Positions 35,776 to 38,779 of a stretch of DNA of 64,000 bases are shown here, piece after piece. The translations under genes and the position numbers were made by a program. The notes under the pieces are model-generated. The model ran no database searches. It saw nothing but the letters and a program-made list of their open reading frames with translations, and was not told the DNA's origin. Positions within the stretch are counted from its first letter, which is position 1. Each line of letters starts with the position of its first letter. This stretch comes from Escherichia coli (GTDB taxonomy: Bacteria; Pseudomonadota; Gammaproteobacteria; Enterobacterales; Enterobacteriaceae), in assembly GCF_003334385.1 (NCBI RefSeq), contig NZ_QOWN01000005.1. The stretch is one strand, 5' to 3'.

Positions 35776-36713
35776 GCATTCGTCCTCTCTGCAATACGCA
35801 GAACTGAACTACGGGCACGAGGGTTCTCAGCCACCTCTTCTTCGCCCGGCATTAACTTGCCTAGTGCTCGCAGCTGACGGCCACCCAGTTTTTTGAGCTG
35901 CTCTTCAGTCATCGGTAACCCTGCCGGAACTTGCGGACCGCGGCTGTTTTCACGCATAAAACGTTTCACAATACGGTCTTCCAGCGAGTGGAAGCTGATG
36001 ATCGAAAGCCGCCCACCCGGGGCCAGCACGTTGAGCGAGCTTTTTAGCGCCTGCTCTATCTCCTCCAGTTCACTGTTTACCCAAATGCGCACCGCCTGGA
36101 AGGTACGGGTCGCGGGATGTTTAAACTTATCTTTCACCGGCGTTGCAGCAGCCACGACTTCCGCCAGTTCTTTGGTGCGGGTCATCGGCTGTTCGCGGTT
36201 ACGCTCGACAATGGCGCGGGCAATGCGTTTGGCAAAACGCTCTTCACCATAGGTTTTCAATACCCAGGCGATATCGGCTTCTTCTGCGGTTTGTAGCCAT
36301 TCAGCGGCTGACTGCCCACGGGTTGGGTCCATACGCATGTCCAGCGGACCATCGCGCATAAAGGAAAAGCCACGTTCAGCATCATCAAGTTGCGGTGAAG
36401 AGACGCCAAGATCGAGGAGAATGCCGTCGATCTTGCCGATAAGATCGCGCTCGGCAACGTATTCGCCCAGCGCGGAGAAAGGTCCGTGGATGATGGAGAA
36501 GCGCGGATCATCAATAGTCTTCGCAACGGCGATAGCCTGCGGGTCGCGATCGATCGCCAGCAAACGCCCCTCTTCGCCAAGCTGCGAGAGGATCAGACGT
36601 GAGTGACCACCGCGACCAAAAGTCCCATCAATGTAGATGCCATCAGGACGGATATTGAGGCCATTAACGGCTTCATCCAGCAGCACCGTAGTATGTTTAT
36701 AGTTTTCCATCAT
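35772..36713 (-). CDS. rsmH: 16S rRNA m4C1402 methyltransferase RsmH (MraW)
   Basis: Track ORF trimmed to the tandem ATGs at 36708-36713 giving [19 protein letters not shown]... (313 aa). Confidence 0.94.
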
Positions 36714-36714
36714 T

Positions 36715-37173
36715 TTATAGAGACAAGTCCTGCAGTCGCTCCGATAAGTCTCCGGTAGCCAACTGCTCTGCGTCGATATCTTCCTTGACCTGTTGATGCC
36801 AGGTTGTTTCATCCCACAGCTCAAACTTGTTGAACTGTCCAACCAGCATCACTTCTTTTGTCAGCCCGGCATGTTGCCGCAGTACTGGCGCGATTAACAA
36901 TCGACCTGCGCCATCCATCTGACATTCGCTGGCATGACCTAACAGTAGGCGCTGCACACGGCGCTCAACCGGGTTCATGCTCGACAGACGCGATAATTTT
37001 TGCTCGATAATTTCCCATTCAGGCAGGGGGTAAAGCAGCAGGCACGGGTGATAAATGTCAATGGTGCAAACCATTTGACCGGCAGCGTTCTCAAGCAGCT
37101 GTTCCCGATAACGGGTAGGCACTGATAAGCGCCCTTTGCTGTCGAGATTGACTAACGTTGCTCCCCGGAACAT
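36715..37173 (-). CDS. mraZ: Transcriptional regulator MraZ
   Basis: Track ORF trimmed to [26 protein letters not shown]... (152 aa). Confidence 0.94.
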
Positions 37174-37192
37174 GCCAGCCTCACCCCTTATT

Positions 37193-37217
37193 CCCACTTT
37201 GCCCCACAATTTCCCAC
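37193..37217 (-). promoter_or_regulatory. MraZ operator: three direct repeats GTGGG (minus-strand sense) spaced 10 bp apart in the mraZ leader
   Basis: CCCAC at 37193-37197, 37203-37207 and 37213-37217 on the plus strand; consistent with the MraZ binding repeats described for the dcw promoter. Confidence 0.55.
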
Positions 37218-37225
37218 TGAAAGGA

Positions 37226-37254
37226 GTTTACGGAGCTGAGGAAAAGCTTGTCAA
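37226..37254 (-). promoter_or_regulatory. Pmra sigma70 promoter of the dcw cluster (-35 TTGACA, 17-bp spacer, -10 GTAAAC)
   Basis: Perfect TTGACA on the minus strand at 37249-37254 with a -10-like hexamer at 37226-37231. Confidence 0.5.
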
Positions 37255-37729
37255 GCCAGTCACAAGGCATACCGAGGTAAAAAACCCGATGTTTACGGCT
37301 AATATCAGCGTTGTTTATTTTACGTCCAACGCGCGAAGCAAATTAACGTTATGAATAGCTGTAAGAAAAAATCCCTCATCGTCATCACCGTTTTAAAATG
37401 ACTCACTATTTTCCACAGCAAATATAAAGTGTCAGTTTGCGACGCGAGCGGCATTTTAGGACATATCTTCCCCGGTTAACAGTCCTTGTTACGTCTGTGT
37501 GGCGCTTGATGCCAGCGGGTTTGCGCAAAAGCAAAGAAAAGTGTTTGTTAAATCGGCAATTCATCGCCGCATGTAACAAAATAATGCAAAAACGCGCTGT
37601 CGATATCACTTAATTATTGTGAATTTCAGCTGGTGAGTTAATTAACGGGCGGGTTTAAAAGCATTTATCAATAATAGTCAGGAATAGTCTTATTTACTTT
37701 AAGCATATTGATGTCCAGTCCCGTACTCT

Positions 37730-37765
37730 ACGCGCCAGAGGGAAATTCACCTGGCGCGTATTTTT
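37730..37765 (+). terminator. Plus-strand intrinsic-terminator-like element (ACGCGCCAG - 12-nt loop - CTGGCGCGT followed by A TTTTT) 9 bp from the cra stop codon
   Basis: Seen in the sequence; the T-tract is on the plus strand, while cra is on the minus strand and no plus-strand CDS lies upstream. Confidence 0.4.
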
Positions 37766-37774
37766 GTTCGCGGC

Positions 37775-38779
37775 TTAGCTACGGCTGAGCACGCCGCGGC
37801 GATAGAGATTACGTTTAATGCGCGTTAAACCAGGTTTTGGCTTACGCGGTTCGTCCAGGCTTGCCAGGACAATCTCCAGCACACGCTCTGCGACATCGCG
37901 GTGACGTTGAGCCACTGCCAGCACCGGACACTGTAAGAAGTCGAGCAGTTCGTTATCGCCAAAGGTGGCAATTGCCAGGTCAGAAGGCAGTTTGCCGTCG
38001 CGACGCAGCGTGACATCCATCACTCCTTGCAACAACGCAAACGACGTTGTGAACAGCGCCTGCGGCATCGGATGCGTTTCCAGCCATTTTTCGAATAACT
38101 GGGCAGCCGCCTCCCGCTCATAGCTGTTGGCATACAGGAAATGCACTTCGCGCGGATCATCTTTCCAGGCAGTACGGAAACCTTGTTCACGCAGGAAGCT
38201 GACAGAAAGCTCCGGTAGCGCACCAAGATAAAGCACCGTCTCGGCGGGAAACTTACGTAACTCTTCCGCCAGCATTTCGGCATCATCCTGATCGGCACCA
38301 ACCACGCTGGTGAAGTGTTCACGATCGAGGGCGCGGTCCAGCGCGACAATCGGGAACGGGTCGTTAGCCCAGCGTTGATAAAAAGGATGCTCAGGAGGCA
38401 ACGACGTCGAAACAATAATGGCATCAACCTGACGCTGTAAAAGGTGCTCAATGCACCGCATTTCGTTGTCTGGCTGATCTTCTGAGCAGGCAATCAGCAG
38501 TTGATAACCCCGTTGCCGCGCTTGGCGTTCAAGATAGTTAGCGATGCGGGTATAGCTGGTGTTCTCCAGATCGGGGATCACAAGACCAATAGAACGTGTG
38601 CGTCCAGCACGAAGCCCAGCTGCCACGGCGTTCGGGTGGTAATTGTGCTCACGCACCACAGCCATGACTTTTTCAACGGTTTTGTCGCTCACACGGTATT
38701 GCTTCGCTTTGCCGTTAATAACATAGCTTGCAGTGGTCCGCGACACTCCCGCCAGCCGAGCGATTTCATCCAGTTTCAC
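37775..38779 (-). CDS. cra: Catabolite repressor/activator Cra (FruR), LacI family
   Basis: 334-aa reading with GTG start; begins [33 protein letters not shown]. Confidence 0.95.

Follow-up and report, generated by a model that had tools for sequence, protein, structure and literature searches.

The promoter Pmra with its MraZ operator has reportedly been described in E. coli K-12 by Hara 1997, Mengin-Lecreulx 1998 and Eraso 2014, and Eraso et al. 2014, a study cited by later papers, is said to have demonstrated both the binding of E. coli MraZ and a repression that depends on the boxes. Across bacteria, MraZ sites consist of three GTG(G/T) boxes with 6-nt spacers (PMC12957436). Such MraZ-binding repeats have been described for E. 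coli, B. subtilis and Mycoplasma (bioRxiv 2022.02.09.479790), and physical binding of MraZ and repression through the boxes have been demonstrated for B. subtilis and M. genitalium (bioRxiv 2022.02.09.479790; PMC12957436). In E. coli, Pmra, or mraZ1p, is the first dcw promoter and has been assigned a short leader of 38 nt (PMC5089854); the mraZ promoter is transcribed in vitro by E-sigma70, with a promoter-proximal pause at +14/15 (PMC7876045).

The locus analysed here, the spacer between cra and mraZ, shows no substantive difference from the K-12 system, having the same locus, promoter and three direct repeats. Pmra and the MraZ operator are textbook E. coli cell-division regulation, and their confirmation adds nothing new. 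What is new is that the upstream two thirds of the spacer, treated as empty in focused studies, is under purifying selection as strong as that on Pmra. This upstream part holds a functional second promoter at a fixed distance and two invariant segments, the latter being candidate input sites for signals of growth or metabolism to the dcw cluster. The rigidly spaced upstream promoters and these segments are a modest new lead.

The cra–mraZ spacer, Pmra and the MraZ boxes

The window, i.e. the whole 64-kb stretch of DNA that was analysed, is E. coli chromosome in the orientation opposite to the K-12 convention, with the genes on the minus strand, such that a K-12 coordinate equals 126807 minus the window coordinate. 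The two genes that bound the spacer are as follows.

38779-37775, minus strand: cra, the upstream neighbour of the spacer
36715-37173, minus strand: mraZ, the first gene of the cluster, annotated as MraZ in RefSeq

The spacer runs from 37174 to 37774 (K-12 89033-89633). The coordinates and the length of 601 bp given in the preliminary description are exact, as the cra stop codon lies at 37775-37777 and the mraZ ATG at 37173-37171, both on the minus strand; downstream of the spacer the gene order is mraZ, rsmH, ftsL, again on the minus strand. The G+C content of the spacer is 43.1%, against 52.8% for the window. Its sequence is 100% identical to that of E. coli SCU-104, and a single base sets it apart from K-12 89033-89633. 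Of 5,426 complete E. coli genomes, 5,424 carry it, each in a single copy; at least 80% of its length is covered by one match in 5,423 of these, and no annotated feature underlies it in any of the 5,424, K-12 included. Three of the 5,425 places that match the spacer in the search of E. coli genomes are in records typed as plasmids.

Conservation was assessed in the best 80 of 496 relatives, all of them Enterobacteriaceae species. In 78 of the 80, cra adjoins mraZ, with 553-733 bp between the two genes. The neutral reference, four-fold degenerate sites, shows an identity with E. coli of 0.45 in cra and 0.59 in mraZ. A contig labelled Chryseobacterium sp. 18061 carries a typical Enterobacteriaceae cra-mraZ locus, with the same landmark coordinates as the locus of Citrobacter sp. 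18056 and a one-base difference from it over 181 spacer columns; this contig probably represents contamination or a labelling error.

The elements nearest to mraZ are the following.

37217..37254, minus strand: Pmra (mraZ1p), with the -35 TTGACA at 37254-37249, an 18-bp spacer, the -10 TAAACT at 37230-37225 and the start at G37217
37193..37217, minus strand: MraZ operator as identified from sequence, three GTGGG boxes at 37217, 37207 and 37197 with a 10-bp period on one helix face
37183..37187, minus strand: GGGGT, possibly a degenerate fourth box, which follows box 3 in register at 10 bp

The hexamers of Pmra match the consensus at 10 of 12 positions and are spaced by 18 bp. A perfect -35 TTGACA had previously been noted and is indeed present, but the 17-bp spacer assigned to it is not, as 18 bp lie between TTGACA and TAAACT and a spacing of 17 bp is obtained only with GTAAAC as the -10. 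The placement of this 17-bp spacer upstream of the three GTGGG repeats was also inexact, since 31 bp separate the end of TTGACA from the first box. Published start mapping upholds the promoter itself: Cappable-seq positions the start at K-12 89590, equivalent to window G37217 (score 27.2), which is the eighth nucleotide after TAAACT and the first base of box 1, and which gives a leader of 44 nt. The older figure of a 38-nt leader implies a start at A37211, 6 nt from the Cappable-seq start and 14 nt from TAAACT; the start of the 44-nt leader is favoured because it better fits the TAAACT hexamer. In a tiling massively parallel reporter assay (MPRA), Pmra is recovered as the minimal promoter 89547-89587 (window 37260-37220). 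As a sigma-70 promoter should, Pmra thus has a hexamer spacing within 16-18 bp, is active with E-sigma70 and starts transcription within 5-9 nt of the end of its -10. Across the 78 species, the Pmra block is 0.90 conserved with an invariant core, and the sequence between the -35 and the -10 is itself invariant. The statement that this region feeds the entire dcw cluster went too far; Pmra is reported as the promoter required by the first nine genes.

Read on the minus strand after TAAACT, the sequence continues CCTTTCA, GTGGGaaatt GTGGGgcaaa GTGGGaataa GGGGtgaggctggc, and then the ATG, with the boxes covering +1 to +25 of the Pmra transcript. No second triple GTGGG repeat exists on either strand of the 64-kb window with one mismatch allowed, and the triple repeat was seen in none of 100 dinucleotide-preserving shuffles. 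The pattern GTGG-N6-GTGG-N6-GTGG occurs exactly once per locus, at the same place upstream of mraZ, in all 82 loci inspected (the 80 Enterobacteriaceae species, K-12 and E. coli SCU-104), and the GTGGG boxes are 0.91 conserved in the 78 species, with box 1 lying 44 bp from the mraZ ATG, or 54 bp in some genera. The translation of mraZ contains two DXXXR motifs, DSKGR (residues 11-15) and DGAGR (residues 87-91), and a pair of such motifs is the DNA-binding signature of MraZ (bioRxiv 2022.02.09.479790). The repeat pattern, its position directly upstream of mraZ at the dcw promoter and the presence of a cognate two-motif MraZ gene identify the three GTGGG boxes, as far as sequence can, as the MraZ operator, a finding that was already known. 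The repeats at 10-bp spacing have the same form as published MraZ boxes, as previously claimed, and the overall picture of a non-coding spacer carrying Pmra and a triple MraZ operator agrees with the sequence, the 80 relatives and the literature.

The possible fourth box, GGGGT, overlaps the G-rich ribosome-binding region of mraZ, and its G positions are nearly invariant. In Buttiauxella, Cedecea, Dryocola, Kosakonia and related genera, a 10-bp insertion is found approximately 20 nt before the mraZ ATG (window equivalent 37183), where it follows the G-rich unit after box 3 and adds one further in-register G-rich unit. The box array in this group of genera may therefore be four to five units long. 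Within mraZ, 149 nt into the gene at window position 37024 (K-12 89783), a single base carries both a 3' end from Term-seq (Adams et al. preprint tables) and a weak 5' end from Cappable-seq; these coincident ends could mark a processing or pause site.

Conserved islands and further starts upstream of Pmra

The distal ~450 bp had been characterised as AT-rich and lacking a convincing ORF. No real ORF is found there, but this DNA is not mere filler, as it contains three transcription starts and four islands. When the conservation of the distal 450 bp across the Enterobacteriaceae was checked, these four islands proved to be 84-94% identical across the 78 species, in contrast to 45-59% at neutral sites. 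From cra towards mraZ, the features are as follows.

37664..37692, minus strand: island iv, with TAAGAnnATTCC at 37692-37681, TATTAT at 37676-37671 and a start at 37664
37569..37588, minus strand: island iii, TGCATTATTTTGTTACATGC, 0.86 identity, with TATTTT at 37583-37578
37447..37490, minus strand: distal promoter, with CTGTTA at 37482-37477, an 18-bp spacer, TAAAAT at 37458-37453, the discriminator GCCGC and the start at 37447
37420..37464, minus strand: island i, 45 nt, 94% identity, which takes in the -10 of the distal promoter and, in its transcript, +2 to +27 (CGCGTCGCAAACTGACACTTTATATTT)
37334..37372, minus strand: island ii, 39 bp, ATTTTTTCTTACA..TATTCATAACGTTAATTTGCTTCG, 84-92% identity

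Four sense-strand Cappable-seq starts fall within the spacer (K-12 89143, 89237, 89360 and 89590), and every one of them sits in or just past a conserved block, behind a plausible -10. The furthest upstream, at 37664 (K-12 89143, score 6.2), belongs to island iv, in which the invariant positions are T, GA and TC, while a weak start at 37570 (K-12 89237, score 2.1) lies within island iii. Island ii, the identity of which is 0.84 at 37372-37360 and 0.92 at 37357-37334, has no sense-strand start in Cappable-seq, no conserved ORF and no structure.

The strongest of the upstream promoters is that with its start at 37447, which is active alone and conserved in both sequence and position; it rests on three lines of evidence, namely conservation, Cappable-seq and MPRA. 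All 78 species have TAAAATGC upstream of the mraZ ATG, at a distance of 271-275 nt, which rises to 280-286 nt in the distant group with the 10-bp insertion. TAAAAT matches the consensus at five of six positions, and CTGTTA is a poor -35 (three of six at 18 bp) that is at least 90% conserved at a fixed spacing; the 18-bp spacer between them varies in sequence and is fixed in length. The start was predicted from the conserved TAAAAT and then met in the Cappable-seq table at K-12 89360, with a score of 9.4, about a third of that of Pmra. It is a T, the sixth nucleotide after TAAAAT, and gives a leader of 274 nt. The tiling MPRA maps exactly two minimal promoters within 89077-89780, at 89317-89357 and 89547-89587, and the former, a 40-bp segment equivalent to window 37490-37450, makes the distal promoter autonomous in LB. 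It lies 230 bp upstream of Pmra. Island i, which includes its -10, is the most conserved stretch of the spacer, on a par with Pmra (0.90) and the boxes (0.91), and behaves as non-coding DNA, in that it does not vary at third codon positions and contains a 1-nt indel. A search of the literature found no focused study of the 89360 promoter, which is present in high-throughput data sets.

In E. coli strain 4/4 (NZ_CP023826.1), IS5 is inserted at CTAA (37460-37456), overlapping the beginning of TAAAAT. The element (locus L083, 3319-4512) puts 1.2 kb between mraZ and the distal -35 with all that precedes it, and this strain has the sole interrupted spacer match among the 5,424 genomes listed. The strain, a natural isolate, is evidently viable despite the insertion, and an intact distal region is therefore non-essential.

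The spacing between these elements is rigid on the side of mraZ. In 76 species, TAAAAT and the Pmra -35 are separated by 202-207 bp, a distance divided by island ii into 99-102 bp from TAAAAT to the island and 103-105 bp from the island to the Pmra -35. Further upstream, the distance from island iii to TAAAAT falls mainly into two clusters approximately 10 bp apart, and that from the cra stop to island iii is variable, at 138-316 bp. The stretches between islands change in sequence at about the neutral rate while barely changing in length. A fixed length with free sequence, together with the lack of RNA covariation, suggests a constraint on DNA geometry. No second copy of islands i and ii was found elsewhere in the E. 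coli genomes.

A number of regulator-site patterns were looked for in the spacer. The sequence TAAGACTATTCCTG at 37692-37679 on the minus strand has two mismatches to the consensus of the RcsAB box, TaAGaatatTCctA, where 0.04 such matches would be expected in 601 bp. The start at 37664 follows 15-28 nt downstream of it, and the core positions of the box coincide with the invariant T, GA and TC of island iv; TAAGACTATTCCTG is a candidate RcsAB box and is offered as a lead only. A further match on the minus strand, TGTGACTGGCTTGACA at 37264-37249, deviates from the CRP consensus at one position; it overlaps the Pmra -35 and is centred approximately 39.5 bp upstream of the start. This CRP site was rejected, its left half being kept only in Escherichia and Citrobacter; mraZ is mentioned in a CRP genomic-SELEX paper. 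Candidate DnaA sites in the spacer were likewise discarded, being one-mismatch matches only, at non-conserved positions. The patterns for Cra, the PdhR consensus and IHF gave nothing beyond chance in the spacer, and the H-NS-like ACGTTAATTT in island ii is a weak lead. One segment has been used as a probe for PdhR.

37230..37273, minus strand: DNA of the PdhR gel-shift probe, overlapping the Pmra -35; the probe sequence matches window 37273-37230

Binding of PdhR to this probe was weak in the gel shift (PMC3265435 Table 4). The sequence CCGTAAAC occurs twice, at 37233-37226 at the Pmra -10 and at 37297-37290, 64 bp upstream; the upstream copy is followed by the conserved GGGTTTTTT and is semi-conserved across genera.

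At the other end of the spacer, a hairpin follows cra.

37730..37759, minus strand: hairpin just past the cra stop, with an 11-bp stem; the 61-nt fold has a minimum free energy of about -22 kcal/mol

On the cra sense strand, AAAAAU precedes the hairpin and no U-run comes after it, the sequence continuing instead as AGAGUACGG; the opposite strand carries the U-run (37760-37768). The hairpin is therefore present without the sense-strand U-run of an intrinsic terminator for cra. Most genera have a hairpin of different sequence at the same position, and in most other genera the T-run is on the cra sense side. The three Escherichia species share the layout with the antisense U-run, and a compensatory change from C-G to U-A is found in their stem. 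This distribution suggests that the cra terminator has been inverted in Escherichia.

The regulatory reading and its alternatives

The spacer is very probably the transcriptional control region of the mra/dcw operon, comprising Pmra, the MraZ operator and further promoters upstream. From Pmra, a sigma-70 promoter, transcription starts at or just inside box 1. An MraZ oligomer could then place one subunit on each box, along one helix face from +1 to +25, and once bound would block initiation or promoter escape, such that mraZ represses itself and the genes downstream; this model of repression is drawn from the anatomy seen here and from work on MraZ in other species. Three more promoters face in the same direction from upstream, with starts at 37664, 37570 and 37447. 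The 274-nt distal transcripts would have to cross Pmra and the operator, and bound MraZ could block them too. The G+C-rich discriminator GCCGC suggests sensitivity to growth rate or ppGpp, and the invariant stretch from +2 to +27 and the 39-bp island ii most likely serve as protein-binding sites. The rigid spacing points to an architecture at the level of DNA rather than to RNA structure.

It is barely credible that the distal conservation instead reflects a small protein gene, such as the 44-codon ORF 37454-37320 or a tiny hydrophobic peptide across island ii. The ATG of this ORF, which overlaps the last two bases of TAAAAT, is kept in 78 of 78 species, and the frame spans islands i and ii; yet it is intact in only one of the 78, while 44 keep a length divisible by three and 15 are free of internal stops. 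The main start at 37447 lies downstream of its ATG, and no gene is annotated there in 5,424 genomes. Divergence at the three codon positions is 0.046/0.089/0.020 in island i and 0.166/0.103/0.164 in island ii, without an excess at third positions. Seven small ORFs, including 37136-37354 on the plus strand and 37406-37609 on the minus strand, are intact in 0-13 of the 78 species, whereas the control, the first 20 codons of mraZ, is intact in all 78. The latter two ORFs had been said to lack coding features, and neither is kept across the 78 species; the interpretation of the spacer as non-coding stands. It is also highly unlikely, though less so than a hidden gene, that transcription from the distal promoter yields a structured leader or a 5'-derived sRNA that attenuates dcw, in the manner of UpsM. 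The leader is 274 nt long against 268 nt in Rhodobacter sphaeroides, its length is strictly conserved, and a T-run at 37284-37279 follows a small hairpin. That hairpin, however, is weak (z = -0.9) and no different from shuffles, and was rejected as a candidate; a terminator scan of the region called none, leaving attenuation without a terminator-like site, and the searchable Term-seq tables list no 3' ends from the spacer start to K-12 89783. RNAalifold applied to a leader alignment of 27 species found no covariation (term -0.39, 0 of 24 compensatory pairs); the sole long helix predicted joins the C-rich Pmra region, which is invariant, to the G-rich boxes. A scan of 36500-38500 against Rfam (E <= 1) gave no match in the spacer. 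An osmY-RNA match inside mraZ/rsmH was sub-threshold, attributed to chance and outside the spacer.

More weight attaches to the possibility, on balance a doubtful one, that the upstream starts are incidental and that the islands are sites for a regulator or nucleoid protein acting on Pmra through helical phasing or looping. The rigid spacing and the occurrence of indels in quanta of approximately 10 bp would both suit such an arrangement, as would an island ii devoid of a start site, the continuation of conservation in island i for 27 nt past the start, and the invariant spacer of Pmra, which suggests overlapping sites. An incidental origin of the starts sits poorly with the autonomous promoter activity of the 40-bp segment 89317-89357 in the MPRA, with a start at 89360 that scores a third of Pmra and with the retention of TAAAAT in 78 of 78 species. 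The reading of the distal region as a promoter and its reading as a set of distant regulator sites are not mutually exclusive. For the cra-proximal hairpin, it is unlikely that, with the T-run on the opposite strand, it ends an antisense transcript running from the spacer toward cra. A stem of 10-11 pairs followed by AUUUUUGUU on the window plus strand does have the canonical shape of an intrinsic terminator, but no promoter-like site was found on the antisense strand, and given the cra-side T-run in other genera, inversion of the terminator in Escherichia is the simpler account.

Within the control region thus preferred, the 330 bp upstream of mraZ may conceivably form one rigidly spaced module shared by the Enterobacteriaceae, a proposal that can be made only tentatively. 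It would comprise the second promoter with a stringent-type discriminator, the +2 to +27 segment and island ii halfway along (about 100 and 103 bp), with these as sites for regulators or looping. If true, such a control module would feed a new signal into the expression of the cell-division genes.

Comparison with known systems

Stringent promoters of the rrn P1 type are arranged in tandem and have a G+C-rich discriminator. The distal promoter resembles these in that its -10 is directly followed by GCCGC and that another promoter of the same orientation comes after it; it differs from them in having a poor -35 and no evident UP element. A long mraZ leader starting from a far-upstream promoter is shared with UpsM of Rhodobacter sphaeroides (PMC5089854), the respective lengths being 274 and 268 nt. 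Unlike UpsM, the E. coli leader was found to contain no terminator or conserved structure and shows no sign of releasing a small RNA, and it belongs to a minor transcript beside the short one from Pmra.

The closest similarity remains that to the box arrays of other MraZ systems. In M. genitalium, where four boxes have been resolved by cryo-EM (PMC12957436), as in E. coli, GTG(G/T) cores at a 10-bp period lie directly upstream of mraZ, and in both species transcription starts inside box 1 (PMC12957436). B. subtilis has three GTGG[A/T]G boxes (bioRxiv 2022.02.09.479790), which have the GTG(G/T) cores and the 10-bp period in common with those described here. An invariant A-rich flank of box 3 (AAAGTGG) is also common to this operator and the arrays of M. 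genitalium and B. subtilis. The E. coli array has three clear boxes and at most one degenerate unit, and some enteric genera have one extra unit of 10 bp.
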